NCBI GenBank assembly: GCA_963702475.1
Contig: CAVPCT010000003.1
Coordinates: 192,001 to 256,000 of the forward strand
Length of the DNA: 64,000 nucleotides
Source of the DNA: an uncultured Thermoleophilia bacterium
Lineage (GTDB): Bacteria; Actinomycetota; Thermoleophilia; UBA2241
Direction of reading: 5' to 3'
In this document: positions 46,995 to 64,000 of the stretch, one piece after another
Layout: each line of letters opens with the position of its first letter
Numbering within the stretch: the first letter of the stretch is position 1
Notes under the pieces: generated by a model
Database searches by the model: none
What the model saw: the letters and a program-made list of their open reading frames with translations, nothing else
What the model was told of the DNA's origin: nothing
Program-made: the position numbers and the translations under genes

Positions 46995-47898
46995 AGTGGA
47001 AGGAGTTCCAGGAGCAACGAGAGCACCCGGCGCGAGTTCCTGAAGAACGCCGGTGATCGCGGGGGCGTCAGCGGTCGCGCTGACGATCGGCGGCTCGCTC
47101 ACCGATGGGACGCCTGTGGCGGCAGCCATCACGGGCACACCCAGAAACGACACGGTCCGCATGGTGCAGGACCTCCAGCGCGCACTCACCCGCCCCGTCG
47201 GGTCACGCCGCTGGGGGATGGTCATCGACCCACGGCGCTGCATCGGCTGTCACGCCTGCACCGTGGCCTGCATCGCGCAGAACGGGTTGCCGGTGGGCGT
47301 CACCTATCGCACCGTCCCCGAGGTCGAGTCCGGCTCGTACCCAGCGGTCGAGCGCTTCTTCATGCCGGCCAACTGCATGCAGTGCGAGAAAGCCCCGTGC
47401 ATCAAGGCGGCGAACACCATCGTCAAGGGCTCCATGGCTCGCCGCCCGGACGGCATCGTGATCATCGATTACTCCCGCATGAAGGGCAAGAAGGTGTTCA
47501 AGGCGGCCGACAAGGCGTGCCCCTACGACAACGCCCTCTACTACGACGCAGGCCGCAGCTGGACAAGCGGCACGCCTGCCCTGCAGCCCTACGACAAGCG
47601 CGGCTCCCACGAATACGGCAAGACCTGGTCGAGGGCCAAGACCAAGGGCGCGACGCGCAAGTGCCACTTCTGCACGGAGCGCATCGACGCGGGCCTGCTG
47701 CCCGCGTGCGTGGCGACGTGCACAGGGCAGGCCATGCACTTCGGCGACCTGAGTGATTCGCAGAGCCTCGTGGCCGAGCTCGTGGCCGCCAGGACGACCC
47801 TGATCATCGAGAAGGGCGCGAGCACGGCGCCGCGCGTGATCTACGTCGACGATCCGTTGGAGGGGTCCGCCATGACCTGCTCCACGTGTCACGGCTGA
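46995..47898 (+). CDS. TtrB/DmsB-like Fe-S subunit with Tat signal (frameshifted 5' end, start uncertain) and terminal CXXCH
   Basis: STRREFLK near 47025; WGMVID..CIGCHACTVAC, CMQCEKAPC, ACPY, KCHFC..PACVATC, ending CSTCHG. Confidence 0.82.
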
Positions 47899-47909
47899 GA
47901 GGAGGACCG

Positions 47910-50900
47910 ATGCAGAACGACGATTCCCTGGACCTCCTCGAGACGGGCGTGTCCACGAGCGAGGCGCTGAGCGAGTCCACGAGCAAGCCCGCCGGCAAGT
48001 CCCGGCGTGAGTTCCTGTGCGCCGGCGGGCTCGTGATGGGTGCTGCCTTCCTCGGCAGTCGCTTCCTCACGGCCTCGCAGGCCGTGGCCGGTGAGGCGGG
48101 TGCGAACGTGACGCAGGCCGGCACGACCGCAGGCAACCCCATCCACACGGTGTGCCTGCAGTGCAACACCGGCTGCGGCATCAAGGTCACCGTGGACAAG
48201 GGCGTCGCGACCAAGATCGAGGGCAACCCGTACAGCCCCTGGACTATGGTCCCCGCGCTGCCCTACGCGACGCCGCTGGCTGAGGCCCTCCCCATCCAGG
48301 GCGCCCTCTGCCCCAAGGGGCAGGCCGGCCTCGAGACCGCGTATGACCCGTACCGCATCGTCAAGGTGCTCAAGCGCGCCGGCAAGCGCGGCGAGAACAA
48401 GTGGATCACGTCCCCTCGACCAGGCCGTGACGGAGGTCGTCGAGGGCGGCAGGCTGTTCACGTCCGTGCAGGGCGAGGAGCAGCGCCAGGTCACGGGTCT
48501 CCGTGGAGATCTGGGCACTGCGTGACAAGAAGGTGGCCTCGGACATGTCCGCCGCCGTGGACGCTATCCGCGCCAAGAAGCCGGAGGAGCGCGCCGCGGC
48601 CATCGCCGAGTTCAAGACGAAGTTCGCCGCCGACCTCGACAAGCTCATCGACCCGGACCACCCGGACTTCGGCCCCAAGAACAACCAGCTCGTCTTCGCC
48701 TGGGGTCGCCTGAAAGCCGGGCGCTCGGAACTCATCAAGCGCTTCGTGCAGGAGTCATTCGGCTCGACCAACGCCCACGGCCACACGACCGTCTGCCAGG
48801 GCTCGCTCTACTTCACCGGCATGGCGATGAGCGACCAGTTCACCGAGGGCAAGTTCACCGGCGGCTCCAAGGCCTACTGGCAGGCCGACACGAGCGACGT
48901 TGAGTTCCTGCTCGCCATCGGCTCCGCGTACCTGGAGGGCGGCTACGGGCCCTCGCATCACGCCCGTAAGCTGATGAAGAACCTCGTCGACGGCAAGCTT
49001 AAGATCGCCGTCGTCGACCCGAGGTTCTCGAAGATCGCCTCGAAGGCGGGAAGTGGGTGCCCATCAAGCCCGGCGCCGACGCGGCCCTGGCGCTCGGCGT
49101 GATCCGCTGGATCCTCGAGAACGACAAGCACGACAAGAAGTTCCTCGGTGCCGCGAACAAGGCCGCCGCGACCGCCGCGGGCGAGGGCTCCTACACCAAC
49201 GCCGCCTGGCTCGTGAAGGACGACGGCAAGTTCCTGCGCGCCTCGAGATGGCCTGGCGGAGAAGGAGACCCGCGCGACCGCCGCCGGCGGCACCTGGGTC
49301 TTCGATACGTTCGTCGCCGTCAAGGATGGTGCTCCCGTCGCCCTCGACCCCAACGACACCAGCAAGGCGGTCGTGGGCGACCCGCTCTACAGCGGCACGA
49401 TCGGCGGCAAGAACGTGAAGACCGTGCTGCAGACGGTGCTGGACACGGCCAAGCAGAAGACCATCGAAGAGTGGGCGGCCGTCTGCGGCATCGTAGCCGG
49501 CGACATCGTCGAGCTCGCCCAGGAGTTCACCTCCCACGGCAAGAAGGCCGTCGCCGACCTACACCGCGGCGTCGCGCAGCACACCAACGGCTTCTACAAC
49601 GTGCTCGCCGTGTACACACTGAACACGCTGGTCGGCAACTGGGACCACCCGGCGGGCTCCTCAAGCTCACCACCTACACGTCGACGGCTCGAAGGACAAC
49701 CAGCCCTTCGCACTCGGTAAGCTGCACTCTGGCCGCAAGCCGTTCGGCCTCAGCATCATCCGTCACAACACCAAGTACGAGGACAGCACGATCTTCGCGG
49801 GCTACCCCGCCAAACGCAACTGGTACCCCTTCGCCAGCGACGTCTACGAGGAGATCGTCCCCTCCATCGGCGACGCCTATCCCTACCCGGTGAAGGCGCT
49901 GATCACGTACATGGCCGCGGCCCCGTACTCGCTGCCGGGCGGCCAGACCAACATCGAGTCCTCTCCGACGTCGAGAAGCTGCCGCTGTACATCGCCAACG
50001 ACACCAGCATCGGCGAGATGTCGATGTACGCGGACTACATCTTCCCCGACGTCTCGTACCTGGAGCGCTGGGAGTTCCACGGCAGTCACCCCTCCATCGG
50101 GGAGAAGGTGCAGCCGGTCCGCAATCCCGTCATCGCGCCGCTCACGGACGACGTGGCCGTCTACGGCGAGCAGCAGCCGAGCTCCCTCGAGGCGATGCTG
50201 CTCGGCTTCGCCGAGAAGCTGGCCTCCCGGGCTTCGGCCCGGACGGCTTCGGCACCGGTCTCGCCCTCACGCGCGGCGACGACTTCTATCTGCGCATGGT
50301 CGCCAACCTGGCGGCCGGCGACAAGACCGGTGAGGAGGCGCCCGACGCGGATGACGCCGAGCTCGCCATGTTCCTGGACGCGCGCAAGCACCTGCCCGCC
50401 ACCGTCTTCGACGCGGCGCGCTGGCAGAAGATCGTCGGCGACACGTACTGGCGCAAGGTCGTCTACGTGCTCAACCGCGGCGGCCGCTTCCAGGACGTCG
50501 AGAAGGCGTACACCGGCGACGTCTTCAACAACAAGTACGGCAAGCTGGTCAACATGTACATCGAGAAGGCCGTGAGCACGAAGTCCGCGATCACGGGCAA
50601 GGCGTTCCTGCCAACGGCCTCGTACCTGCCCATCAGGAACGTACAGGACCAGGTCGTGGACGACTCGGCCGAGGGCTACGATCTGTCGCTCATCACCTTC
50701 CGCGACATCCTCATGACCAAGAGCCGGACGATCGTCGACTACTGGCTCACCGCGATCCTGCCCGAGAACTCTATCGTCCTCGGCGCGCAGGACGCCTCGC
50801 GCCTCGGCCTCAAGACGGGCGACAGCGTGCGCGTGACCTCCAAGTCGAACCCGACCGGGGAGTGGGACCTGGGCGCCGCCGGCACCAAGCCCATGGTCGG

Positions 50901-51156
50901 CAAGGTGAAGGTCGTGCAGGGCATGCGGCCCGGCATCGTCGGCTTCTGCCTCGGCTACGGCCACTGGGCCAATGGCGCCGGCAACGTGACGGTCAACGGC
51001 AGGCTCGTCAAGGGCGACAAGCGTCGCGCCACGGGCGTGCACGCCAATGCCGCCATGCGCCTCGACGACTACCTCAAGAACACCTGCATGCTGGACCCGG
51101 TGGGGGGCAGCGTCTCCTTCTACGACACCAAGGTGAAGCTCGTGAAGCAGAGCTGA
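47910..51156 (+). CDS. TtrA-clade molybdopterin oxidoreductase catalytic subunit (about 9 frameshifts)
   Basis: Tat SRREFL; [19 protein letters not shown]; DPYR..LKR.GKRGE.KW; EVVEGG.LF; [16 protein letters not shown]; GHTTVC; YLERW; GYGHW. Confidence 0.88.
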
Positions 51157-51178
51157 CGACCAGCTCTGCCGAAGAAGT

Positions 51179-51259
51179 GCGGGGGACGGCGCCACCGTCG
51201 CCGTCCCCCGCCACTCAGACGACCTGTCGCCGGTTTGCGGATTCCGGTGGCAGGTCGTC
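51179..51259. terminator. Two tandem hairpins between convergent operons
   Basis: GCGGGGGACGGCG/CGCCGTCCCCCGC and GACGACCTGTCGCCGG/CCGGTGGCAGGTCGTC. Confidence 0.65.
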
Positions 51260-51268
51260 GCACTCCGC

Positions 51269-51964
51269 CTACTTGACGAGCAGGTAGACCCCGGCGAGCA
51301 CGACGAGGGCCCCGCAGGCACGGCGCACCCAGCGCGTGACGCCCGAGCGACCGCCCCATGAGACGACCGTCTGGGCCCTCTGGGCGGCTGTGCCCGCCGC
51401 GACGATGACGCCGCAGTGACCGAGGGCGAACGCCCCGAGAAGGGCGACGGCGAGCCCGTAGTCTATCTCGGGCCTGCCCGAAGACGATCATTAGCAGCGG
51501 CGCCAAGAAGGCGAAGGAGCAGGGGCCGAGCCCGACACCGAACACGAGGCCCAGCCCCAGCGCGGCCGGCATGCCGCGGCGGTGGGTCGTCGATGGGAAC
51601 GACGTCCAGCGGAGCGGCAGCAGGTCCATGAGGTAGAGGCCGAAGACGAAGAAGACCACGGCCACGGCGACGTTTCCGACTGGCGCCGAGGTCGCCGACC
51701 AGGCGGCCCAGCGAGGCGGTGATCAGGCCGATCAGCGCGATCGAGGCCAGGACGCCGAGCGAGAAGACGAGTGACAGCCTGAAGGCGCGCCTGGTCGAGG
51801 CGTCTTCCTGCGTGGAGATGAAGCCGACGATCGAGGGGCACACTGGCCAGGTGGCACGGGCTGAAGACGATGCTGACGACGCCCCAGGCAAAGGCCGCGA
51901 GCAGGGCCCAGCCGAGCGACTCGCTGAGGCCGTTGCTCAGGCTGGTGAGGACCTGCTCGAGCAT
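51269..51964 (-). CDS. ccdA: CcdA/DsbD-family thiol transporter (several frameshifts)
   Basis: FSPCHLASVP and LGPCSFAF motifs in different frames. Confidence 0.8.
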
Positions 51965-51973
51965 GGCTCGACG

Positions 51974-52415
51974 CTACTGCGTCGTGACCTTCTCGAGGCC
52001 GTGCTCGATGAGCAGCGCCTCGATCGTCTCCTGAGGATAGAAGCCGGTGTGCCGGTGGAACTCGGCGCCCTTTTCGTCGAGGAAGACCTGGGTGGGGATA
52101 TACTGGATGCCGTATGCCGCGCCGGTGCGTCGTCTTCCCAGACGTCGTAGAAGACGACCTCACCTGGTCGCCGAAGGTCTGCTGCGATGCCGTCCATGAC
52201 CGGGCGCATCTCCTTGCAGGGGATGCACGTGTCGGAGCCGAGTTCGACGAACGTCACCTTCGCTGTGGCGCTCGGGCGCCGGGTGCGGCGAGGGTACGGC
52301 GGAGGAGCCGGCTGCGCCCGCGCTCCGCCGCACCCCGTGAGCGCGACGACGCCGAGCCAGGAGACAGTGCAGCGCAAGAGGACGAAGCAGGCCGCGTGCG
52401 CGCCGCGCGAGTCAT
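51974..52415 (-). CDS. Exported thioredoxin-like lipoprotein (frameshifted)
   Basis: LTGC lipobox, ELGSDTCIPCKEM, FYDVW, PTQVF..RHTGF. Confidence 0.75.
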
Positions 52416-52693
52416 CCCTGAGCGGCCAGCGCCGTCGTGATCATCGAGCTGACCTCGGACTGCGACGGCACCTTGCCGCTCATCACGACCTCGCCGTCGA
52501 TGACGAGGGCGGGCGTGGACATCACGCCGTAGGCCATGATCGTGGGGAAGTCCTCGACTTTGACGAGCTCGGCGTCGGCCATGCCGAGGTCGCGCAGGGC
52601 CGCCTCGGTGATCGCCATCAGCTTCTGGCAGTTGGCGCAGCCTGAGCCAAGGATCTCGAGCTCACGTGCAACTCTCCTTCTTGTAGTGGTCAT
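52412..52693 (-). CDS. Small redox-active disulfide protein (MTH895-like thioredoxin)
   Basis: ILGSGCANC..YGVMSTPALVIDG..GKVP. Confidence 0.9.
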   Translation of the reverse strand: MTTTRRRVARELEILGSGCANCQKLMAITEAALRDLGMADAELVKVEDFPTIMAYGVMSTPALVIDGEVVMSGKVPSQSEVSSMITTALAAQG

Positions 52694-53076
52694 GACGCGT
52701 TGCGTCGCGCCGGCTTGTTCGCCGCCGTCGCGCAGGCGCTGGCGGCTTGCTGGGGGTCGCCGGGGCAGTCGCGCAGGCGCTGTACGTAGTCGAGGAAGCC
52801 CTTGAGGTCGCCGTCGAAGCGCTCCCAGTCGATGGAGTAGTAGGTGCGCGTGCCCTCGTTGCGCATACGCAGCAGGCCGGCATCGCGCAGAAGTGCGAGG
52901 TGGTGCGAGACCAGCGGCTGGCTTTGATCGAGCGGCCCCGTCATCTCGCAGACGCAGCGCTCGCCGCCCAGCAGGAACTCGACGATCTGCGCGCGTATGG
53001 GGTTGCAGAACGACTTGAAGAACGGGACGAAGTCGACGATGCTGCCGGCCTCTGCGGGGTCTTTGGCGATCTTCAT
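52690..53076 (-). CDS. arsR: ArsR/SmtB-family regulator
   Basis: NPIR..ERCVCE..SQPLVSHHLALLRDAGL; extra C-terminal cysteines. Confidence 0.9.
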   Translation of the reverse strand: MKIAKDPAEAGSIVDFVPFFKSFCNPIRAQIVEFLLGGERCVCEMTGPLDQSQPLVSHHLALLRDAGLLRMRNEGTRTYYSIDWERFDGDLKGFLDYVQRLRDCPGDPQQAASACATAANKPARRNAS

Positions 53077-53077
53077 A

Positions 53078-54193
53078 TCAGCTCCTCGGTGGGTCGCAGG
53101 CGACCTCGTTGGCACCGGCGGCGACCGCCGCCGGCACAGGTTCGTCGGTCATGCCCCAGTACTTGCTGCCGAGCCAGAGCGCCACGCTCACAAGGCCGAT
53201 GAGCACCGGCACCTCGACGAGCGGGCCGATGACGCTCGCGAACGCCTCGCCTGAGTTGAGGCCGAAGACGGCGATGCTGACCGCGATCGCGAGCTCGAAG
53301 TTGTTGCTCGCGGCGGTGAAGCACAGGGTCGCCGTCTTCGAGTAGTCGGCGCCGATGCGACGGCCCATGAAGAAGCTCACGAAGAACATGATCACGAAGT
53401 ACAGGGACAGCGGGATGGCGATGAGGAGCACGTCCAGGGGCAGCTCGACGATGAGGTCGCCCTTGAGGCTGAACATCACGAAGATCGTGAACAGCAGGGC
53501 GATCAGCGTGAGCGGGCTGATCCGCGGGATGAACTTGTGCTCGTACCAGTCGCGGCCCTTGGTCTTGAGCCCGATGTAGCGGCTGACCATGCCGGCGATG
53601 AACGGGATGCCGAGGTAGATGAAGACGCTCTTGGCGATCTGCCCGATGGTGATGTCGACGGCCACGCCCTCGAGGCCGAAGAGCGGCGGCAGCTTGGTCA
53701 CGAACACCCAGGCGAACACGCTGTAGAAGAGCACCTGGAAGACGCTGTTGAAGGCCACGAGGCCGGCGGCGTACTCGGTGTCGCCCTTGGCCAGCTGGTT
53801 CCAGACGATCACCATGGCGATGCAGCGCGCCAGGCCCATCATGATGAGCCCGACCATGTACTCGGGGTAGTTGTGCAGGAAGATGATCGCCAGGAAGAAC
53901 ATCACGAACGGCCCGATGAGCCAGTTCTGGACGAGCGAGAGGCCGAGTATCTTGTAGTCGCGGAAGACGTCCCCGAGCTCCTCGTAGCGCACCTTGGCGA
54001 GCGGCGGATACATCATCACGATGAGGCCGATGGCGATGGGGATGTTGGTGGTGCCCACCGTCCAGCGGTCGATGAACTCGGGCACGGAGACGAACGCCCA
54101 GCCGACGCCGACGCCGATGAACATCGCGAGGAAGATCCACAGCGTCAGGTAGCGGTCGAGGAACGAGAGGCGCGTTGTCGCGGTTTCGGCCAT
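53078..54193 (-). CDS. acr3: ACR3-family arsenite efflux transporter
   Basis: [49 protein letters not shown]. Confidence 0.96.
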
Positions 54194-54249
54194 TGGCTGA
54201 CTCCTCCTCGAAGCGTGTGCATGTCCTGGGTGCCTGACCACGAGGCTAC

Positions 54250-54282
54250 ATTGACATCCGTTGATGGTCAAGCTAAGTTGAT
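54250..54282 (+). promoter_or_regulatory. sigma70-like promoter overlapped by two ArsR-type boxes (acr3/arsD divergent region)
   Basis: TTGACA-17 bp-TAAGTT; ATTGA-N6-TTGAT and GTCAA-N6-TTGAT. Confidence 0.7.
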
Positions 54283-54317
54283 ATAAACGTTTCCCTATGA
54301 AATCCCAGGAGGTCGTC

Positions 54318-54946
54318 GTGACGCTCGTGCAAGTGTTCGACCCTGCCATGTGCTGCTCGACCGGGGTCTGCGGACCTTCGGTCGACCCGCAGCTCGTGCG
54401 CTTCGCCGCCGACCTCGACTGGCTGAAGGGCCAGGGGGTCTCGGTCGAGCGCTTCAACCTCGCCCAGGAGCCGCGCGCGTTCGCCGAGAACGCCGCCGTC
54501 AAGGACGCCCTCGAGGTCACGGGCGAGGCCGCACTGCCGCTCGTGGAGGTGGACGGCGAGGTCAAGAGCCGCGGCGTGTACCCGTCGCGCGACGAGCTCG
54601 CCCTGTGGGCCGGCGTCGCAGCGCCCGCCGCGAGCCTCTTCACCGACGAGGTCGCCGAGCTGGTGGCCATCGGCGCCGCCATCGCGTCCAACTGCGAGCC
54701 CTGCTTCAAGTTCCACTATGCGGCGGCGCGCAAGCTCGGCGTGTCGCGAGAGGACATGGCCTCCGCCGTCACCATGGCTCAGCGCGTCAAGGACACGCCT
54801 GCCCAGTCGATCCTCATGCTCGCCGACCGCATCCTCAAGCCCGGAGCCGAGGGCGACGAGGCCGATGGCCGAAGCGCCGCAGGCGGCGGCCAGGCTCCTG
54901 CTGTGGCGGAGCACCGACAGAGGCCAAGGCCGGCGGATGCTGCTAG
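54318..54946 (+). CDS. arsD: ArsD metallochaperone fused to an AhpD/carboxymuconolactone decarboxylase-like domain (frameshift near 54885)
   Basis: [22 protein letters not shown], then [20 protein letters not shown]; tail GSCC..GGCC in a shifted frame. Confidence 0.88.
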
Positions 54947-54962
54947 CAGCCAGGGCAACACG

Positions 54963-56706
54963 ATGATCGACCGATCCCACGCCGATCCTCTTCTTCACCG
55001 GCAAGGGCGGCGCCGGCAAGACGACGACCGCCTGCGCCACCGCCATCGCCCTCGCCGACGCCGGCAGTCGCGTGCTCCTGGTCAGCACCGACCCGGCCTC
55101 GAACCTCGACGAGGTGCTCGGTGTCGAGCTCTCCGGGGCGCCGGAAGGCGTCCCGTTCGTGCCGCGCTTGTCGGCCCTCAACATCGATCCGGAGGCGGCC
55201 GCCCGCGACTACCGCGAGCGCGTCGTCGGCCCCTATCGCGGCGTACTGCCGGAGGCTGCGGTGGCGAGCATCGAGGAGCAGCTCTCCGGAGCCTGCACGA
55301 TGGAGATCGCCGCGTTCGATGAGTTCTCCAAGCTGCTCGGGGACGAGGCCGCGACGGAGGCGTTCGACTACGTGGTCTTCGACGCCGCGCCGACCGGGCA
55401 CACGCTGCGCCTGCTGGAGCTGCCGGCGGCATGGTCCGACTTCATCGAGACGAACGTGGGCGGCACATCGTGTCTGGGTCCGCTCGCCGGGCTGGAGGCG
55501 CAGAAGGAGCTCTACGCCGCCACCAACGCCGCGCTGCGCGACGCGGCGAGGACGACCCTCGTCCTGGTGGCTCGACCGGAGGCTTCCTCACTGCGTGAAG
55601 CCGAGCGCACCCGCGGTGAACTGGCGCAGCTCGGAATCGGCAATGTCCGGCTGATCGTCAACGGGGTGTTTCGGGCCACTGACCCAGGCGATGCGACGGC
55701 GCTCGCGATGCAAGCTCGCGGCGAGGCAGCGCTCGAGGGCATGCCCGGGGCCCTTCGCGGACTTGAGCGCGTCGGAGGTCCCGCTCCTCCCTACGGCCTC
55801 GTCGGCGTCGATGCGCTGAGGAGCATGAGCGGTCGCGCTCCCTTCGACGTGGCCGCGGACGCGGCCGACTCGGATGGCTTTGCGGCCGGCGGCCTCGCGG
55901 ACCTCGTTGGAGCAGATCGCTGCTCAGGGCAAAGGCGTGGTCATGACGATGGGCAAGGGCGGCGTGGGCAAGACGACCGTCGCGGCTCGCATCGCGACGA
56001 TGCTCGCCCAGCGGGGGTTTGGCGTCACGCTGACGACGACTGATCCGGCGGCGCACGTCGAAGCGGCCCTCGGCGAGAGGCCGGAGACGCTCCGCGTGAC
56101 GCGCATCGATCCCGCTCTCGAGACGCAGCGCTACACCGAAGAGGTGGTCGCCACCGCGGGCGAAGGCCTCGACGCCCAAGGGCCTTGCGCTCCTCGAAGA
56201 GGACCTGCGCTCGCCGTGCACCGAGGAGATCGCGGTGTTCCGGGCCTTCGCCGAGACGGTCGCGCAGGGCAGGGAGCAGTTCGTCGTCATCGACACGGCG
56301 CCGACCGGCCACACGCTGCTCCTGCTCGACGCTGCCGAGGCGTACCACCGCGAGGTGCTGCGCAAGTCCAGCGGCAGCCCGGAGGCGGTCCAGCACCTGC
56401 TGCCGCGCCTGCGAGACCCGTCCTTCACGAGCGTGGTCCTGGTCACGCTTCCGGAGGCCACCCCGATCCACGAGGCGATGCAGCTCGAGCGCGGACCTGG
56501 CCCGCGCCGGCATCAAGCCCTTCTCCTGGGTCGTGAATCAGAGCCTGACGCCACTCGAGGTCAGTGACCCGGTCCTGGTCTCGAGGCGTTCCCACGAGGG
56601 CACTCATCTGCGCGAGCTTGTGGCTCACGCCGAGCGCATCGTCCTGGAGCCTTGGGCATCCCCGACCTCGCGACGTAGTACGGCAGAGGCCGCGACCCCG
56701 CTCTGA
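54963..56706 (+). CDS. arsA: Arsenical pump-driving ATPase (several frameshifts)
   Basis: FTGKGGAGKTT, STDPASNL, EQLSGACT, APTGHTLRLL, MGKGGVGKTT, DLRSPCTEE, DTAPTGH. Confidence 0.92.
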
Positions 56707-56753
56707 GCGGGCCTGGCTGTCACCCCCACGTTGACCCCTGAGAGGTAGACCCC

Positions 56754-57515
56754 GTGAAGACCATCCAGATCGAGCAGCCGTTCGCCGTCTTCTCCGACGT
56801 GCACGGCAACCTGCCCGGACTCGAGGCGATCCTCGCCGATATCGCGCGGCGCGAGGTGCCGGCGACCATCTCGCCTCGGCGACCTGGTCGGCTACGGACC
56901 CTCCCCGAACGAGGTCGCCCTGCTTGTCCGCGACCGCGGCATCCCCTCGCTGATGGGCAACTACGACCAAGGGCATCGGCTTCGAACTCGGCGACTGCGG
57001 CTGCGTCTACAAGACCGACGAGCAGCGCGCCGAAGGAGCCGCCTCGCTCGCCTGGACGCAGGAGGCGGTGACCGACGAGGTCAAGGCGTATCTGCGCACG
57101 CTCGAGGACCACTTCACGCTCGAGACGTCGGCGCGGCGAACTGCTCGCCGTGCACGGCAGCCCGCGGCGCATCAACGAGTACCTCTTCGAGGACCGGCCG
57201 GAGTACGCCATGGTGCGCATGGCCGACGAGTATCCCTACCCGGCGATCTTCTTCGGCCACACGCACGTGCCCTACGCGCGGCTGGTGGGCGAGACGACCT
57301 TCGTGAACGTTGGCAGCGGCGGCCGGCCCAAGGACGGCGACTGGCGCGTGTGCTACGCGTCGTCGATCCCGCACGGCTGGGACGCCCGGCTTCGTCGAGT
57401 TCGTGCGCGTGCCCTACGACTACGAGAGGTTGAGCGGGAGCTGGCCGCGACGCCGTTGATCACGAGCTTCGCGGGTCCGCCACCCGCGGTCGAAGGGGTG
57501 ACCGGTCATGAGTGA
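56754..57515 (+). CDS. Metallophosphoesterase (frameshifted)
   Basis: SDVHGN, GDLVGYGP, GNYD, HGSP, GHTH, NVGS.G.PKDGD. Confidence 0.85.
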
Positions 57516-57954
57516 GCACGCCCTCGAGGGTGAGCACGTCCAGGGAGCATCCACTCTGGCAGAAGGAGGACAGCAGATGGAGGCGCAGCGCCCCGGGCTT
57601 GTCATGTGCGTCTGCACCGGCAAGTGCCCCGGTTTCGAGCAGCTGGACATCTGGGACTTCATCAACCAGGTGCGGGTGGAGCTGCCGGTCGAGTTCGGGA
57701 TGATCCATCCGCAGCTGTGCGAGGAGGACGGCGACCGCTTTCTGGCCGACCTCCTTCTCGCCGGGCGCCCGCTGGTCATCGCGGGATGCGCCCCGAACAT
57801 GCAGTACAAGCTGTTCCGCGATGCTTTTGCCGAGCGAGGCATGGACATCAAGAAGGACATGGTCCCACTCGACATCCGTGACATGCCGACCGACCAGGCA
57901 GTGAAGAAGGTCGCCGACGCGCTGCACAGCATGGGGGTCGAGGGCGATGTCTGA
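57508..57954 (+). CDS. Stand-alone HdrA N-terminal-like Cys domain protein
   Basis: VMCVCTGKCP..HPQLC..VIAGCAP..DIR pattern of the HdrA N-domain. Confidence 0.7.
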   Translation: MSEHALEGEHVQGASTLAEGGQQMEAQRPGLVMCVCTGKCPGFEQLDIWDFINQVRVELPVEFGMIHPQLCEEDGDRFLADLLLAGRPLVIAGCAPNMQYKLFRDAFAERGMDIKKDMVPLDIRDMPTDQAVKKVADALHSMGVEGDV

Positions 57955-58237
57955 GAACACGTTCATGGGAGTGGCGCGGGAGAGCATCCCCTGGGCGCCC
58001 CTCATCGACTACGAGAAGTGCGACTTCTGCATGGAGTGCGACGAGTTCTGTCCCCACCGGGTCTTTGAGCGCCGGGAAGGCGACGTCAAGCTGGTGGTCG
58101 CCAATCCGAACAACTGCGTGGTGTTCTGCCGCGCCTGCTCGAAGACCTGTGGCCCCGATGCCATCACGTTCCCCGACAAGCCCGAGACGATCAAGCTGAT
58201 CAAGGAGCTGCGCAAGGCGGAAGGCGGGCCGACATGA
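57947..58237 (+). CDS. 2x[4Fe-4S] ferredoxin
   Basis: CDFCMECDEFCP and CVVFCRACSKTC. Confidence 0.9.
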   Translation: MSENTFMGVARESIPWAPLIDYEKCDFCMECDEFCPHRVFERREGDVKLVVANPNNCVVFCRACSKTCGPDAITFPDKPETIKLIKELRKAEGGPT

Positions 58238-59079
58238 GCTACGCCGTCCTTGCCTGCAACGGCGTGGACAAGATGGAGGGTGCGCTGGCGCGGGAGGTGG
58301 GGCTTCAGGTCGCTGAGGCGACGGGGGCAGACATCATCTGTCCGGTCCTCCTCAATCGCGCCCCGGACCACTACGAGAAAGCGCTCGGCGAGGACGCCCT
58401 GATCGTCGTCGACGGCTGTGGCACGAGGTGTGCCTCGAAGCTCGCCGCCGCGGTGGGGGCCAAGCCGAAGCAGAAGGTCCTCGTCTCGAAGCTCGTGAAG
58501 GCGTCCGGAGAGCATCTCCAGGCTTCACTGCGCCTCGGGCCCGACGGGACGGCGCTCGCCGAGCGCATCGTGGCGGACGTCGTCGCAGCCTTGGACGCAT
58601 CGGGACACCAGGCGACGCCGGCTGCATGGGAGGCGCCGACAGACTTCTTCGTCGTCGTCTTCAACAAGTTCGAATTCCACATCCCCACACAGGGTTACTG
58701 GTTCAGCGAGAACGACACCTGGGCCCGCCAGATGGGGAACCGGGCACGAGTCGGCATCTCCGACTACCTGCAGCAGCAACTCACCGACATCCTGTACTTC
58801 AACCCGCCGGAGCTCGGGACGCTGGTGGAGCAGTTCGGGGAGCTGGGGGAGGTCGAATCGTCGAAGGCGATCTTCGAGATCATCGCGCCGGTGAGCGGCA
58901 CTGTCGTGGCGGTCAATGAGACGGTGGTGGGAGAGAGCCCTGAGCTCGTCAATGCGGATCCCTACGGCGAAGGGTGGCTCGTCGAGGTCGAGTTGAGCGC
59001 CTGGGCGGAGGAGAGCGAGCTGCTCCTGGACGGGCCCGCCTACCGCGACACAGTCGGACCCAAGGCTGCGGACTATTGA
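58234..59079 (+). CDS. DGC (putative Zn-binding) domain fused to a GcvH-like lipoyl-carrier domain
   Basis: LACNG..ICP..VDGCGTRCA; W......ARVGISDY.Q..L.DI..VESSKA..APVSG.V..VN..VNADPYGEGWL. Confidence 0.88.
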   Translation: MSYAVLACNGVDKMEGALAREVGLQVAEATGADIICPVLLNRAPDHYEKALGEDALIVVDGCGTRCASKLAAAVGAKPKQKVLVSKLVKASGEHLQASLRLGPDGTALAERIVADVVAALDASGHQATPAAWEAPTDFFVVVFNKFEFHIPTQGYWFSENDTWARQMGNRARVGISDYLQQQLTDILYFNPPELGTLVEQFGELGEVESSKAIFEIIAPVSGTVVAVNETVVGESPELVNADPYGEGWLVEVELSAWAEESELLLDGPAYRDTVGPKAADY

Positions 59080-59101
59080 CGGGTTGAGAGAGGTCGGTCA
59101 T

Positions 59102-59530
59102 ATGGAAAGCGAAGCAGGCAAGAACCCCGTTCTCGTCATACCGTGCAGCGGGATCGGCAAGGTGCAGGGCCTCCTCAGCAGGGAGGCGACCTACCTTGCG
59201 ACGGACGAAGTGGCCACGGGCGTGACCGACACGCTGTGTCTGGCCTTGCTGGTCAAGGGCGATGCGGACGCGGTGGCCAGGGTCCGGACGCACGAGTGCA
59301 TCACCATCGACGGTTGCGCAAAGGCCTGTGCCAGGAAGAACACGGAGATCGCCGGCGGACGGGTCGCCAAGGCGGTGCAGGTCGCGGCCGCGCTGAAGAA
59401 CCACCGCGGGGTGCAGCCGGGCACGTCAGAGATCCTGACGGTCGACGGCTGGTCCGTCGCCCGGGAGATCGCCGAAACGGTCGCCGTCGATGCCGAACGT
59501 CTGCAGGCCGGCGACGAGGTGGCCCCATGA
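59102..59530 (+). CDS. DGC-domain protein
   Basis: IPCSG..LCL..IDGCAKACA. Confidence 0.85.
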   Translation: MESEAGKNPVLVIPCSGIGKVQGLLSREATYLATDEVATGVTDTLCLALLVKGDADAVARVRTHECITIDGCAKACARKNTEIAGGRVAKAVQVAAALKNHRGVQPGTSEILTVDGWSVAREIAETVAVDAERLQAGDEVAP

Positions 59531-59979
59531 GTGACCCGGCGAGCGCCGACACCATCAAGGTCGGCATCATCTCCTGCAGTGGTGAGGAGATCCCCGAGGG
59601 CACCATCTCGCGCCTCGCGACGCTCCGCGTCCTTCGGACGCTGCGCCCAGAGGCGAGCGTGACGATCTGCCTGCCCCTGTTCCTCGCCGGAGAGGGAGGC
59701 GAGCGCAACTTCGCCAAGACCCACCCGACGATCACCGTCGATGGCTGCGATAAGCAGTGCGCCAGGTGGGGCACCGAGAAGTACAGCGGGCCGGTGGCCC
59801 GCGCGCTGGTGGTCTCGGACATGCTGGGGACCGACTCTGCCGACTGTCAACGATCGACGCGATCGCCCGGCCACGCGGACGAGGAGGCCGTGCGCGTCGT
59901 CTCCGAGAAGATCGTGTGCGCCCTCGACGAGGTCCTCCAGGAGCAGGGCACGGCATCACGCGGTGGGGACGACGGATAA
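59527..59979 (+). CDS. DGC-domain protein
   Basis: ISCSG..ICLP..VDGCDKQCA. Confidence 0.85.
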   Translation: MSDPASADTIKVGIISCSGEEIPEGTISRLATLRVLRTLRPEASVTICLPLFLAGEGGERNFAKTHPTITVDGCDKQCARWGTEKYSGPVARALVVSDMLGTDSADCQRSTRSPGHADEEAVRVVSEKIVCALDEVLQEQGTASRGGDDG

Positions 59980-60018
59980 GTCGAAGCGCGATTTGACCGC
60001 GAACGAGGAGCCTCGCGC

Positions 60019-60822
60019 ATGGACACGCTGACCACCTTCACCGACCGCAAGGAGTTCGAGCGGGCGATCGCACTGCTCCGGCGCCTGCGGATCGACCACC
60101 AGGTCGTCTCGCCGGATCCCGCCTACAGTGCCGTGGGCTCTCCCGCTCTGGTGCTCTCTCCCGAAGACAGGGCGGCGTTTCTGGACGGGGGCGGCGTCGA
60201 CCTTGTCAACGCCGGCTGGGTGGACTACCGGCTTCCTCCAGAGGACGTGCCGCAAGCGGAGCCGCGCGAGTTCGTCGAGGACATGGTCGGCAGGGTCGCC
60301 ATCGTCGTGCTCGCGACCTGCATCGCAGACGCGGCCCGGCTGCGCCTCATTGCGCACTTCTCCGGGGACGTGGCGGAGGCCTTGCCGTACCTCAACGGCG
60401 AGTTCCTTCAAGGCTCCTACGTGCCCGCGATGCCCGTCTTCACCTACATGGACGGCCACCGCATGGTCTCGCTGTTCCGCGACCGCATCGGCATCGCCAA
60501 GGCCGACGACATCGTCGACGCCTGGGCGAGCCTGGAGCGCGTCCGCTGCCTCGTCAACGACGTCTGGGCGCGGCGCGCGCAGATCACACCCTCGACGGAG
60601 ACGCGACGCCGGCCACCGGCCCTGGAGATCTACAAGCGTCTGCCGGGCACCAACTGCAAGGACTGCGGCGAAGCCACGTGCATGGCCTTCGCCTGGGCGG
60701 TGTGGCGCGGCGACGCCGAGCCGCGTGAGTGCCTTCCAGTCTTCGTGGGTGAGCGCGCCGATCTCAAGGATGCGCTGCTCGCCATCTGCGCCGGACTCGG
60801 GCTGGCGGAGGACGACACGTGA
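60019..60822 (+). CDS. Fe-S cluster protein with C-terminal RnfB/AcsC-type FeS domain
   Basis: LPYLN core; LPGTNCKDCGEATCMAFA..C.P. Confidence 0.82.
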   Translation: MDTLTTFTDRKEFERAIALLRRLRIDHQVVSPDPAYSAVGSPALVLSPEDRAAFLDGGGVDLVNAGWVDYRLPPEDVPQAEPREFVEDMVGRVAIVVLATCIADAARLRLIAHFSGDVAEALPYLNGEFLQGSYVPAMPVFTYMDGHRMVSLFRDRIGIAKADDIVDAWASLERVRCLVNDVWARRAQITPSTETRRRPPALEIYKRLPGTNCKDCGEATCMAFAWAVWRGDAEPRECLPVFVGERADLKDALLAICAGLGLAEDDT

Positions 60823-60926
60823 TGGCGGTCGCTACCATCACGGTGTCGTCCCCGGTCTTCTGAGCCAGCCGGCAGCGGAGGCCTCCACGATTCATGCACT
60901 TGTGTTTATGAACTGCGGGGTAGATA

Positions 60927-60942
60927 ATCAGCAAATGTTGAT
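60927..60942 (+). promoter_or_regulatory. ArsR-type palindrome upstream of the fmdE operon
   Basis: ATCAG-CAAATG-TTGAT in an AT-rich patch; same form as the 54250-54282 boxes. Confidence 0.62.
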
Positions 60943-61028
60943 GAACTAAGCCGCAGTGTGCGCCTCGAGATGGCGCTGCGAACCGGTCCTCGACCTCGTC
61001 ACGTGAGCGTCTTCCAAGGAGGAGTGTC

Positions 61029-61646
61029 ATGACCACGCCGTACGCGCCGCCCGAGTGGGCCTTCGAGTTTCATGGCCACCGCTGCCCGTTCATGCCGATC
61101 GGGTACCGCATGGGCAGGCTCGCCATGCAGCGCCTCGGCGTCGAACGCGAGAAGGACCACGGCTTCTACGTGGTCGCCGAGCTCGGCGAGGGCCATCCCC
61201 AGACCTGCATGATGGACGGCATCCAGGCAGCCACCGGCGCCACCTACGGCAAGCTGCTGCTCTCACGCACCTTCTGGGGCAAGCTGGCGGCCGTGTTCGC
61301 CCATCCCGAGAAGGGCGCGGTGCGCTACGCGCTCAACGCCGACTTCATGGACGAGATGGGCAAGCACGAGTTCTTCGCCTACCGCAAACGCGGCATCGAG
61401 CCCTCCGAGACACCCGCGGAGATCACCGAGGACCTGGTGGCATGGATCGCCGAGCTGCCCGACCAGACGGTCTTCAAGGTCGAGGACATGCCGGGCTACG
61501 TCTACACGCCGGTGAAGGGCTCGTTCAACAAGACCAGGTGCTCGAGCTGCGGCGAGTACGTCTTCGACCGCTACGTGCGCACCAAGGACGGCGCGCCTGT
61601 CTGCATCCCGTGCTCGGGGTACGAACCCGCGCCGCAGCGGAAGTAG
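61029..61646 (+). CDS. FmdE-family protein with Zn finger
   Basis: FHGHRCP..G, C..DGIQ..GATYGK, CSSCGE..CIPC. Confidence 0.88.
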   Translation: MTTPYAPPEWAFEFHGHRCPFMPIGYRMGRLAMQRLGVEREKDHGFYVVAELGEGHPQTCMMDGIQAATGATYGKLLLSRTFWGKLAAVFAHPEKGAVRYALNADFMDEMGKHEFFAYRKRGIEPSETPAEITEDLVAWIAELPDQTVFKVEDMPGYVYTPVKGSFNKTRCSSCGEYVFDRYVRTKDGAPVCIPCSGYEPAPQRK

Positions 61647-61659
61647 AGGGGAGGCACCG

Positions 61660-62487
61660 ATGAAGGATCCGACCGTTGTCGCAGGCGCCGGCGAGGCTGC
61701 CGCAGCGCCCGACCTGCAGACTATCGCCGACGAGATGGAGCAAACCATCGGGCTCGACGGTGCACCGGTGGCCGTGTTCCTGCTAGCTCCCGGGGCCGAC
61801 ATGTCGCCGTTCGCCGGTTGGGAAGCGGTGGAACGCCATCGCTACTGCCAGGCCCTGATGAAGGCGCGCGCCGGCGAGTGCGTCATCCTCGAGCCCGAGG
61901 AGCTGGCCTGCCCGGCGGCGGCCCGCGCCTTTGGCTTCAAGCCGTTGCCGCCGGCTCTGCAGACGGGCAAGGGCCTGGTCGGCTTCGGCATCGTCGCCAA
62001 ACCTGAGAGCGGCGCCACCATGTTTGACGGCATGAGCTGCCTCGAGCCGGGCACGGTGGCGCGCCTTGCGCTCTGCCCGCTGGCCGAGGCGCCGGCGCTG
62101 CCGGACGTGGTCGTTGTGGAAGGTCCTCCGGAGCAGCTCATGTGGCTGCTGCTGGCCGAGGTGAACCTGCGCGGCGGCGAACGTCTCACCGGCAGCACCG
62201 CCGTGCTGCAGGCGACCTGCGTCGACGCCACCGTCATCCCGCACCTCGAGCAGCGCCTGAACTTCACGATGGGCTGCTACGGCTGCCGCGAAGCCACCGA
62301 CATGGCGCCCGCCGAGACGGTCGTCGGCTTCCCTGGCTCTCGCCTCATGCAGCTCGTCGACAGCCTCGCCTTCCTCGGCGTCAAGGCGATTCCACGCTCG
62401 CGCGCCAAGCACGCCCACGAGGCACTCGTCAGTGGGTGCGCACCGAACGCTGACGCGCCGTCACCCTTCAGTCGGCGGGCAGAGTGA
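61660..62487 (+). CDS. DUF169-family protein
   Basis: PVAV..RYCQA..A..CP..G; PDVV..P.Q; ATC..GCYGCR. Confidence 0.85.
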   Translation: MKDPTVVAGAGEAAAAPDLQTIADEMEQTIGLDGAPVAVFLLAPGADMSPFAGWEAVERHRYCQALMKARAGECVILEPEELACPAAARAFGFKPLPPALQTGKGLVGFGIVAKPESGATMFDGMSCLEPGTVARLALCPLAEAPALPDVVVVEGPPEQLMWLLLAEVNLRGGERLTGSTAVLQATCVDATVIPHLEQRLNFTMGCYGCREATDMAPAETVVGFPGSRLMQLVDSLAFLGVKAIPRSRAKHAHEALVSGCAPNADAPSPFSRRAE

Positions 62488-62541
62488 CGCCGTCTCAATC
62501 CGCTTCCATCGTCCACCCATTCTCCGTCCAGAGGAGTCACC

Positions 62542-63138
62542 ATGCTTGATAAGGACCTGCTCGACCTCGGCCTCAGGTTCCACGGCCACAGGTGCCCGGC
62601 CATGCCCATGGGCCTGCGCGCCGGCGTCGCCGCAATGGAGGCCCTCGGCGTCGAGCGCGCGCCCGACGGCCAGCTCGTCGCCCTCGTCGAGATCGACGAG
62701 GACCACTGCGCCACCTGCTTCGCCGATGGTATCCAGGTCGCCACCGGCTGCACCTTCGGCAAGGGCAACATCCGTCGCCTCGGCTACGGCAAGTTCGGCC
62801 TCACACTGGTCGACAAGCGCACGCAGCGCGCCGTGCGCGTCGTGCCCAAGGGCAGCGTGATGATGAAGAACCGCGAGTCCGAGTTCATGAAGCTCCGCAG
62901 CTCCGGCATGCCGGCCTCGCAGATCCCCTCCGAACTCGTCGCCCCGCTGATCGCCAACGTCTCCTCGGCCCCCGACGCGGCGATCCTCGACGTCGGCGAG
63001 GTCAGCGCCTACGAGTGGCATGACGGACCGCACACCTTCGAGGCCTTCCTCTGCCCCGAGTGCGGTGAGATGGTCGTCGAGCGCAATGCGCGCGTCAAGG
63101 GCGGCGTCGCCGTCTGCCGTCCCTGCGCCGAGCGTTAG
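62542..63138 (+). CDS. FmdE-family protein with Zn finger (second paralog)
   Basis: FHGHRCP.MP.G, CFADGIQ..GCTFGKGN, CPECGE..CRPC. Confidence 0.88.
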   Translation: MLDKDLLDLGLRFHGHRCPAMPMGLRAGVAAMEALGVERAPDGQLVALVEIDEDHCATCFADGIQVATGCTFGKGNIRRLGYGKFGLTLVDKRTQRAVRVVPKGSVMMKNRESEFMKLRSSGMPASQIPSELVAPLIANVSSAPDAAILDVGEVSAYEWHDGPHTFEAFLCPECGEMVVERNARVKGGVAVCRPCAER

Positions 63139-63159
63139 GCCGCGGGGGAAGGTGCGCAC

Positions 63160-63902
63160 ATGACGAGCACCTACCTCATCGCCGCGCTCGTGACGCTCGC
63201 CTTCACGATCGTGCTCACCGTGGCCGGTCTCGGCGCGGCCTTCATCCTGGTGCCGGTCTACCTGGCTCTAGGAGTGGAGTTGCACTCGGCGCAGGCCACA
63301 GCGCTGCTACTCAACGCCATCGCCATGGCCTTCGCCTGCGCGCGCTACATCCCGGCGAAGCTGGTCGACTTCCGTATCGCCATCCCCATCGTCATCGTGG
63401 CTACGATCGTCTCGCCGCTCGGGGCCTACACCAGCTCCTTTGTGCCGGTAACGACGCTGAAGTGGATGTTCATCGGCTTCCTCGTCTTCGCCGGGGCGAT
63501 GATGCTCTTCTACAGGCCCAAGCCGCACGAGGTGGCCGGCCGGGGCGAGGTCGTCGGCGTGGGCTTGGGTGTCGGCGGCGCGGCCGGCTCCTCGGCGGCA
63601 TGCTGGCGTCGGCGCGGCAACTTCAGCGTCCCCGCGCTCGTGCGGCTCGGACTCGACCCAAACGCGCCTCCGGCACCACCGCGTTGCTGGTATTCGCCTC
63701 GTTCACGGGCTTCCTCGGCCAGGCCTCAGTCGCCACCATCGACCTCACACTGCTCGGCTGGACCGCCGCCGCCGCGATCATCGGTGCCCTGATCGGCTCG
63801 TGGCTCATGCACCGCAAGCTCCAGGCGGCGCAGGTGAAGACGTCCATCGGCGTGCTGCTCTTCTTCATCGCTGCGACGATGGCGTGGCAACTGCTGGCGT
63901 GA
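63160..63902 (+). CDS. TauE/SafE-family sulfur-compound exporter (frameshifts near 63585-63690)
   Basis: AGLGAAFILVP and repeated helical pattern; C-terminal half in a shifted frame. Confidence 0.8.
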
Positions 63903-63964
63903 CCAGACCAACTGGAACAGCCACGGTGGCTGGACAGGACAGTGCGACGAGCAGGGAGGCGACC

Positions 63965-64000
63965 ATGCAAGCGCGAGCAGAGATCGATCCCGGCACCTGC
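63965..64000 (+). CDS. Start of a probable DUF6951-like protein (runs off the window)
   Basis: GGGAGG RBS; MQARAEIDPGTC resembles MASSTIDSGVC of 8851-9168. Confidence 0.45.
   Translation, partial: MQARAEIDPGTC

Follow-up and report, generated by a model that had tools for sequence, protein, structure and literature searches.

What does a lipoyl carrier do where its usual partners in glycine cleavage are not encoded? The question is raised by a 64,000-nucleotide stretch of an uncultured Thermoleophilia bacterium (assembly GCA_963702475.1, contig CAVPCT010000003.1, here C3, positions 192001-256000), referred to throughout as the window, in which one gene joins a DGC domain to a glycine cleavage system H-protein (GcvH) domain close to a set of arsenic resistance genes. 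The genome comprises 4.3 Mb on nine contigs and is 93.8 % complete with 6.5 % contamination. An earlier note on this DNA had taken the fusion for a lipoyl dithiol decoy or carrier that scavenges As(III). The answer we favour, tentatively and at somewhat less than an even chance, is that the fusion belongs to a five-gene module which, judging from gene content and conserved residues, may act as a lipoyl-dependent thiol/electron relay on arsenic or soft-metal species and be induced by thiophilic metalloids.

A DGC domain joined to an H-protein domain

Both halves of the fusion were recovered by Pfam above cut-off, DGC (PF08859) at aa 4-96 (E 1.6e-16, 60.7 bits vs a cut-off of 27) and GCV_H (PF01597) at aa 157-274 (E 1e-28, 100.1 bits vs 22.2). 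Direct reading of the sequence placed the four cysteines of the DGC part at Cys8, Cys36, Cys62 (in VVDGCGTRC) and Cys66, and the lipoyl lysine of the H part at Lys211 within VESSKA. Across 28 aligned fusions from very different genomes, C8, C36, D60-G61-C62, C66, E208 and K211 were invariant, which bears out the earlier description of a four-cysteine DGC domain attached to an H-protein domain that keeps its lipoylation lysine. Of 683 matches among 5.8 billion proteins searched, the best 120 were inspected; these were nearly all 280-297 aa long, contained both domains and were 94 % down to 56 % identical over their full length. All Cys motifs and the lysine were present in 117 of these 120; the three misses comprised two truncated entries and one VKSTKA variant that retains the lysine, and every full-length homologue in this set kept it. 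Because homologues with both domains align along their whole length, with identities reaching 94 %, sequence comparison confirmed the fusion as a real and widespread architecture and not an artefact of a frameshift-prone assembly. JGI labels the fusion 'glycine cleavage system H protein'.

The AlphaFold2 model of the fusion (pLDDT 90.2) comprised two parts, an H-protein domain and a DGC domain. In a fold search the H domain matched 1dxm_A with Z 22.6 and a root-mean-square deviation (rmsd) of 1.1 over 131 residues, whilst Foldseek returned E 4.7e-13 to 3klr, E ~1e-12 to many H proteins and a TMt of 0.93 to several solved ones; sequence identity to solved H proteins was 29-39 %. The fusion scored below both NCBIfam GcvH equivalog cut-offs (TIGR00527, 102.2 vs 115.85; NF002270, 112.4 vs 117). 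Set beside canonical GcvH (PF01597/TIGR00527), it has the same fold and lipoyl-lysine hairpin, but it carries a Cys4 DGC domain at its N-terminus, is 281 aa long, scores at sub-equivalog level and was never encoded beside gcvT or gcvP in the loci read. Kinship of the DGC domain with ArsC was considered and rejected: low-molecular-weight (LMW) phosphatase/ArsC chains reached only Z ~7 amid many unrelated folds in the whole-model fold search. A profile of the two other DGC proteins of the locus (DGC2 and DGC3, below) found no match among PDB sequences at E up to 10.

As the earlier note had observed, gcvT, gcvP and lpd are missing from the window; these families match only elsewhere, on C3 and on contigs C4 and C5 (Table 1). 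Because the genome holds this separate canonical glycine-cleavage set, we read the fusion from its sequence as a second, specialised H protein, and no gcvT or gcvP adjoined it in any of the 23 related loci described below. Five other genomes that hold the fusion were searched (G301, G304, G350, G352 and G564; completeness unreported), four of which had a separate canonical gcvH and gcvT, and a 2-oxoacid dehydrogenase E2 was found in none. The fifth, G564 (1.9 Mb, completeness unreported), yielded no other GcvH-like gene, no gcvT and no E2, and its module locus (L214) is flanked by its own lpd and lipoate ligase. If that genome is complete, lipoate would serve the module alone there. The suggestion that the fusion protects lipoate enzymes does not suit all of its holders.

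A five-gene module with constant iron-sulfur partners

The fusion is the third of five genes, preceded by a gene for a stand-alone HdrA N-terminal-domain protein and a ferredoxin gene, and followed by genes for DGC2 and DGC3. Overlaps in the window amount to 8 nt between genes 1 and 2 and 4 nt each between genes 2 and 3 and genes 4 and 5; all five genes are intact, and several of their neighbours are frameshifted. Searching by tblastn with the window proteins, we found the order HdrA-N-like protein, ferredoxin, DGC-GcvH, DGC2, DGC3 kept in all 23 related loci with a full-length fusion (four from species genomes, three from metagenomes, five from the window's phylum and 11 from a Bacillota-type phylum), one of them cut by a contig end. 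The species-genome and metagenome loci came from pattern scans, in which the ADPYGEGW pattern mostly drew canonical GcvH, and the 11 Bacillota-type loci include second copies from two Desulfosporosinus genomes. Holders are Desulfosporosinus, a Clostridiaceae metagenome-assembled genome (MAG), a MAG labelled Cyanobacteria, five genomes of the window's phylum and metagenome contigs, with a GC content across the module loci of 32-68 %. Identity to the window proteins was 54-89 % for gene 1, 60-91 % for gene 2 and ~39-87 % for the fusion, genes 1 and 2 being the better conserved.

Distribution of the fusion was patchy: within the window's phylum 5 of 300 further genomes had it, within that of G302 9 of 400 further ones, and within that of G301 none of 250. 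Of 301 genomes sampled from the window's phylum, six had both the fusion and the HdrA-N-like gene, one of the six being the window's own, and the remaining 295 had neither. Because every locus with the fusion also encodes an HdrA-N-like Fe-S protein, a ferredoxin and two further DGC proteins, the fusion appears to belong to a dedicated lipoate-using machine rather than to act as a lone decoy, and the constancy of the Fe-S partners points to redox chemistry. The lipoyl arm of the earlier proposal is supported by the invariant lysine, the canonical fold and the ligases nearby, but a free-standing decoy is hard to square with Fe-S partners that are obligatory in 23/23 loci. Two full module copies in differing contexts were seen in each of the Desulfosporosinus genomes G302 (L010, L210) and G303 (L011, L220), one copy with lpd directly upstream and the other beside arsR, a cysteine desulfurase, a Se/S-carrier gene and a CDF exporter.

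Gene 1 had no Pfam or NCBIfam match. Its reading frame is open from 57508, and the start was set at Met 57577, where homologues begin. The family comprises at least 1267 clusters at 90 % identity, mostly of 125 aa, with 63-94 % identity, and JGI labels it 'heterodisulfide reductase subunit A-like polyferredoxin'. Its five cysteines (CxCxxxC, HPQLC and AGCAP) were invariant in 34/34 sequences. The AlphaFold2 model (pLDDT 84.8) matched seven HdrA chains over residues ~2-139 with Z 11.0-12.9, an rmsd of 2.4-2.5 over 115-117 residues and 19-23 % identity, the closest unrelated fold reaching Z 8.6. A profile search of 1.84 billion representatives gave 137 matches at E up to 1e-3, mostly 110-135 aa or fragments; in three longer ones the hit lay at the N-terminus and was followed by FAD/Pyr_redox_2 and Fer4 domains, the layout of HdrA. 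On the basis of this fold match and the profile link to proteins of HdrA layout, gene 1 is read as a stand-alone HdrA N-terminal domain with a predicted Cys-ligated cluster site. In HdrA this domain carries a single [4Fe-4S] cluster, which electrons pass on their way to the flavin. Gene 1 thus has the N-terminal fold of methanogen HdrA (PDB 5odc, 7bkb, 8rvy), to which its profile link is weak but significant; unlike HdrA it stands alone, without FAD and ferredoxin domains, and with a presumed cluster. Homology between the DGC and HdrA-N-like families was entertained and dropped (hhalign profile-profile probability 0.5 %), and complex prediction for the fusion and the HdrA-N-like protein, each supplied as an alignment, scored 0.01, which is no evidence either way.

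The ferredoxin has two Cys motifs, CDFCMECDEFCP and CVVFCRACSKTCGP, and its top NCBIfam likenesses are HgcB-type ferredoxins, all under cut-off. DGC2 starts at a TTG at 59084, with an alternative in-frame ATG at 59102 preceded by GAGAGG, and C21, C52, D76-G77-C78 and C82 are invariant in its alignment (A3). The genome contains only three DGC domains, all in the adjacent genes 3, 4 and 5, and each has four invariant cysteines, which Pfam presumes to bind Zn. In four Firmicute-type loci DGC3 ends in a Gly/Cys-rich tail with up to four Cys in a run (L009:11228-11698, L010:11261-11755, L011:11261-11740 and L097:11225-11692), a feature suggestive of soft-metal or cluster binding and absent from the DGC3 of the window.

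Neighbouring genes were counted in 23 tabulated loci, namely the window and 22 related ones (L096 was excluded as a fragment like L097), within 10 kb unless stated, from Pfam, NCBIfam and tblastn of the flanks; these loci are not independent. A lipoate-protein ligase gene was present in 8 of the 23, directly after gene 5 in six (that of L097 scored 305.8 vs a TIGR00545 cut-off of 280), and a dihydrolipoyl dehydrogenase gene in seven, directly before gene 1 in six (that of L011 is bona fide, at 516.9 vs a TIGR01350 cut-off of 408.8). Since the lysine is invariant, the fold canonical and a ligase gene nearby in these eight loci, the H domain of the fusion is very probably lipoylated.

Arsenic and soft-metal genes around the module

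Upstream of the module the window holds a set of arsenic genes and downstream a further Fe-S protein and FmdE-type genes (Table 1).

Table 1. Module genes, their surroundings and the canonical glycine-cleavage genes. Positions are those of the window unless a contig (C3, C4, C5) is given.
Feature	Position	Strand	Remarks
TtrB/TtrA-like molybdoenzyme	47053-51156		Frameshifted; upstream of module
DsbD/CcdA-like membrane protein	51120-51964		Split frames; identified by eye, fragments without Pfam match
Thioredoxin-like gene			Upstream of module, by the DsbD/CcdA-like gene
MTH895/ArsE-family thioredoxin-like gene	52412-52693		Upstream of module
ArsR/SmtB-family repressor	52690..53115	-	GERCVCE motif; Pfam HTH_5; NF033788 77.3 bits vs cut-off 55
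ACR3-type arsenite efflux permease (SBF family)	53078..54140	-	Pfam SBF 8.4e-64
ArsD metallochaperone fused to AhpD/CMD-like domain	54297..54950	+	ArsD 3.4e-42, CMD 1.3e-9; NF033727 129.5 vs 90
ArsA ATPase	55072..56706	+	At least three frames; PF02374 on ORFs 55072-56043 and 55874-56536 (different frames)
Metallophosphoesterase	56754-57515		Two frames; upstream of module
Module gene 1, stand-alone HdrA N-terminal-domain protein	57577..57954	+	~125 aa; presumed Fe-S; five invariant Cys
Module gene 2, ferredoxin, 2x[4Fe-4S]-type	57947..58237	+	96 aa; Pfam Fer4/Fer4_10/Fer4_7
Module gene 3, DGC-GcvH fusion	58234..59079	+	281 aa; open ORF; Cys8/36/62/66, lipoyl-Lys211
Module gene 4, DGC protein 2	59084..59530	+	148 aa; Pfam DGC 3.3e-13; four invariant Cys
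Module gene 5, DGC protein 3	59527..59979	+	150 aa; Pfam DGC 1.8e-14
PF04060 'putative Fe-S cluster' protein	60019..60822	+	267 aa, domain C-terminal; Pfam FeS 1.4e-13
FmdE / DUF169 / FmdE set	61029-63138		Downstream of module; FmdE proteins end in zinc-ribbon
TauE sulfite-exporter-family gene	63160-63792		Downstream of module; Pfam
LMW-phosphatase-type (ArsC-like, LMWPc) gene	C3:265059-265448		~14 kb away
Canonical gcvH	C3:126481-126840		~120 kb upstream of fusion
gcvP halves (gcvPA, gcvPB)	C3:126869-129201		Same cluster as gcvH; further gcvP match at C5:836005
Ligase-family gene	C3:130040		Same cluster; second ligase-family gene at C5:789810
lpd	C3:130575-131966		Same cluster; TIGR01350 above cut-off
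gcvT	C4:256111-256851		Other contig than canonical gcvH cluster

The split-frame genes upstream (47886-51156, 51120-51964, 55072-56706 and 56754-57515) reflect either long-read indel errors in DNA of 70 % GC or real decay. The CMD domain fused to ArsD displayed a weak NCBIfam likeness to the AhpD domains of arsenite-methyltransferase selenoproteins, and the FmdE-DUF169 pair recurs in a close relative (L095:11677-13254, 73-78 % identity). The island runs on past the window (L229, C3:255001-272000) with HMA-domain proteins, P-type ATPase fragments, a Methyltransf_31 fragment (a SAM-methyltransferase, possibly ArsM-like) and ferredoxin and radical-SAM genes. ArsC of the PF03960 type was not found in the genome, which is 93.8 % complete, and replacement of ArsC by the module was weakened as an idea for this genome by the LMWPc gene listed in Table 1. 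A promoter and terminator scan of positions 52000-64000 found no promoter-like site and one terminator-like site (52049-52068), fewer than in shuffled sequences and uninformative at 70 % GC.

Across the tabulated loci, arsenic and soft-metal context recurred and was not peculiar to the window, which supports the arsenic link drawn in the earlier note. An ArsR-family gene was present in 19 of the 23. Among 20 module-adjacent ArsR proteins, 14 carried GExCVC(E/D) and three CAC, i.e. 17/20 had a CxC pair; such a pair is the mark of As(III)/Cd/Pb-type sites. ACR3 occurred in eight loci (a weaker, unverified match in L009 was left uncounted) and ACR3 or ArsP in ten. MTH895/ArsE-family thioredoxin-like genes were found in eight loci, and relatives of the PF04060 Fe-S protein lay within 3 kb of the fusion in eight, making it a frequent accessory. 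Cysteine desulfurase genes lay within 5 kb in seven loci, with a PF11823 Se/S-carrier gene beside them in L010 and L011 (Pfam) and L220 (tblastn), and CDF cation-efflux genes were present in five. A TtrBCA-like molybdoenzyme was also encoded in five (the window, 47053-51156; L175; L212:14873-19400; L216; L217:14505-19850); at 514-548 bits the TtrA-like proteins fell far short of the equivalog cut-off of 1750, and for ArrA they reached just 93-142 bits. The partnership with ArsD envisaged previously was not conserved, ArsD being near the module only in the window, apart from L095, where tblastn with the ArsD-CMD query gave a short match of 77 aa. Pfam detected no ArsC, DsrE, TusA, rhodanese or CCG-domain protein among 107 neighbours scanned in the other loci.

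A proposed relay for arsenic or soft metals, and its rivals

Taken with the regulators, these neighbours fit a tie of the module to thiophilic metal(loid) stress, and to arsenic itself in about half of the loci. Under the reading that we favour, DGC-GcvH would be the lipoyl-carrier subunit of a five-protein relay with the HdrA-N Fe-S protein, the ferredoxin and two Cys4 DGC proteins, and the five genes would be translationally coupled in a single operon whose ArsR-type repressor senses thiophilic metal(loid)s. The lipoyl arm, loaded on Lys211 by a lipoate-protein ligase, would cycle between disulfide and dithiol. It could be reduced by dihydrolipoyl dehydrogenase and NAD(P)H where lpd is encoded alongside, or by low-potential electrons that, in the direction that we infer, reach the Cys4 DGC sites with their presumed cofactors by way of the ferredoxin and then the HdrA-like protein. 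The reduced arm would then act on its putative arsenic or soft-metal substrate at or near the DGC cysteines, either capturing and handing over As(III) or reducing a species that is bound or oxidised, with ACR3, ArsP or ArsA then providing efflux. The dithiol arm may bind As(III) or hand it over to DGC cysteines, as the earlier note had it. We consider it doubtful, though worth stating, that the module embodies a further, as yet undescribed role of lipoate, in which an arm regenerated by a mini Hdr-like Fe-S chain and three Cys4 DGC sites would be the working dithiol of an inducible arsenic/soft-metalloid detoxification enzyme of anaerobes. One possible activity of such an enzyme would be reduction or thiol-exchange of arsenicals that no known Ars enzyme handles without oxygen, for example pentavalent or thiolated (organo)arsenicals.

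Several observations weigh against the relay. Arsenic-specific transporters lie within 10 kb in under half of the loci, and several loci carry CDF cation-efflux genes and cysteine desulfurase instead. NCBIfam assigns the module-adjacent ArsR proteins to the general family only, with no effector, and the effectors of ArsR-family regulators include sulfane sulfur and other metals as well. As(III) sites are usually formed by three cysteines, and the four invariant cysteines of DGC appear to fit Zn or an Fe-S cluster better than As(III); the DGC part of the model is a flavodoxin-like alpha/beta fold whose best match (3pu6_A, Z 8.8) is generic only. The window's own module has no adjoining ligase or lpd, and it is not needed as the island's arsenate reductase because an ArsC-like gene lies 14 kb away. 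Nor are the related loci independent, since a single lineage seems to account for L213, L215, L216 and L217 and another for the window and L095, and two Desulfosporosinus genomes supply four of the loci. No RNA sequencing run with the window DNA is listed; in metagenome runs its DNA shares were at most 0.19, which has no bearing on expression or habitat.

As(III) binds vicinal dithiols such as dihydrolipoamide, and the arm might do nothing further: as a passive sink or chaperone, the reduced dithiol, perhaps with DGC cysteines, would bind As(III) and spare dithiol proteins or pass the arsenic to ArsD, ArsA or ACR3, the Fe-S proteins keeping the arm reduced or being incidental. That established chemistry, the recurrent CVC-type ArsR and ACR3/ArsP context and the invariant lysine all suit such a role, as do ligase and Lpd neighbours that would supply a reduced arm and the Cys-rich tails of some DGC3 proteins. 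We nevertheless judge it unlikely, because two Fe-S proteins and two extra DGC proteins in every locus, with the fusion and the HdrA-N gene confined to the same genomes, exceed the needs of a sink, and a stoichiometric sink would be costly compared with efflux; ArsD is nearby in the window and as a short match in L095 only, and with E2 found in none of the five holders and no other H protein or gcvT in G564 (completeness unreported) there would be little to protect in G564. The fusion might also be an ordinary or spare H protein of glycine cleavage or the lipoyl relay, joined by chance to a zinc-binding domain and with no role in metal(loid) handling. Its near-canonical domain, which falls short of the NF002270 cut-off by a few bits and reaches a TMt of 0.93, and the name given by JGI favour this, but the separate gcvH in a gcvH-gcvPA-gcvPB-ligase-lpd cluster, scores below both equivalog cut-offs, the consistent absence of gcvT and gcvP beside the fusion in 23 loci and its constant place inside the five-gene module make it very improbable.

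A further rival is a sulfane-sulfur or persulfide module akin to sHdr-LbpA, in which the arm would move sulfur between Cys4 DGC and Hdr-like Fe-S centres under persulfide-sensing ArsR-type regulators, and arsenic genes would adjoin through sulfur detoxification of soft metals or shared islands. The GcvH-like LbpA of sHdr systems works with dedicated LplA-like ligases and Hdr-type Fe-S proteins (PMC6067878), and ArsR-type sulfane-sulfur sensors are reported to control such genes (PMC12423496). Our own loci add the cysteine desulfurases, the PF11823 carriers of L010, L011 and L220, the TtrBCA-like molybdoenzymes and the window's TauE-family gene. We regard this explanation as improbable, however, since no DsrE, TusA, rhodanese, HdrB/C (CCG) or full-length HdrA occurs among the module genes or the 107 neighbours, ACR3, ArsP, ArsD and ArsA neighbours recur, and the holders, which seem to be anaerobes, showed no sulfur-oxidation gene set in the stretches read; the CVC pair of the adjacent regulators is also typical of As/Cd/Pb-type sites. 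What weight remains falls to an explanation that has not yet been thought of.

A full-text literature search, with most subscription journals outside it, found no description of the DGC-GcvH fusion or of the module. Its nearest described relative is sHdr-LbpA, which combines a GcvH-like lipoate-binding protein with specific LplA-type ligases and Hdr-type proteins in sulfur oxidation and, in archaeal hdr clusters, has a linked dihydrolipoamide dehydrogenase gene (Cao et al. 2018, PMC6067878). Both systems have a GcvH-like lipoyl protein outside carbon metabolism that is encoded with Hdr-related Fe-S proteins and with ArsR-type regulators nearby; a ligase adjoins the module in 8/23 loci and not in the window. 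In contrast to sHdr-LbpA, the module has only a ~125-aa HdrA N-domain, with no flavin domain, HdrB/C CCG protein or DsrE/TusA/rhodanese; its lipoyl protein is fused to DGC, two extra DGC proteins are obligatory, and it adjoins arsenic and soft-metal resistance genes, not sulfur-oxidation genes. As the hdrC1B1A-hyp-hdrC2B2 genes and sulfurtransferases are missing from the module, the window neighbours and the 107 other neighbours by Pfam, we do not count it as a member of sHdr-LbpA.

A PF08859 protein of unknown function also stands beside arsR, arsP and an ArsE-type thioredoxin-like gene in Pseudodesulfovibrio mercurii ND132, whose operon reads arsR5-arsP-arsE-DGC (bioRxiv 10.1101/2022.10.17.512643); that operon differs in its single DGC protein, and the passage that describes it mentions no H-protein fusion or Fe-S partners. 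GcvH-L of Streptococcus pyogenes (PDB 5a35) is likewise a second and specialised lipoyl protein of the H type, its gene lying apart from those for glycine cleavage; it matches the fusion's H domain with Z 14.4, but at only 20 % identity and with no DGC or Fe-S partners. GcvH-L presumably belongs to an ADP-ribosylation (sirtuin/macrodomain) operon. We class the module among lipoyl-carrier systems outside central metabolism.

To our knowledge, lipoate serves only the 2-oxoacid dehydrogenases, glycine cleavage, the lipoyl relay and, most recently, sHdr-LbpA sulfur oxidation, and its dithiol is a classic cellular target of arsenite. Because cultured Desulfosporosinus strains hold the operon, the question is directly testable. 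If the relay is real, it would give a first function to the DGC domain (PF08859) and to a Pfam-less family of 125 aa that keeps 63-94 % identity across phyla. A dedicated lipoyl carrier encoded with Hdr-like Fe-S proteins under arsenic-type repressors suggests that some anaerobes exploit the very chemistry behind arsenite toxicity; a weakness toward arsenite would, in that case, have been turned into a tool.

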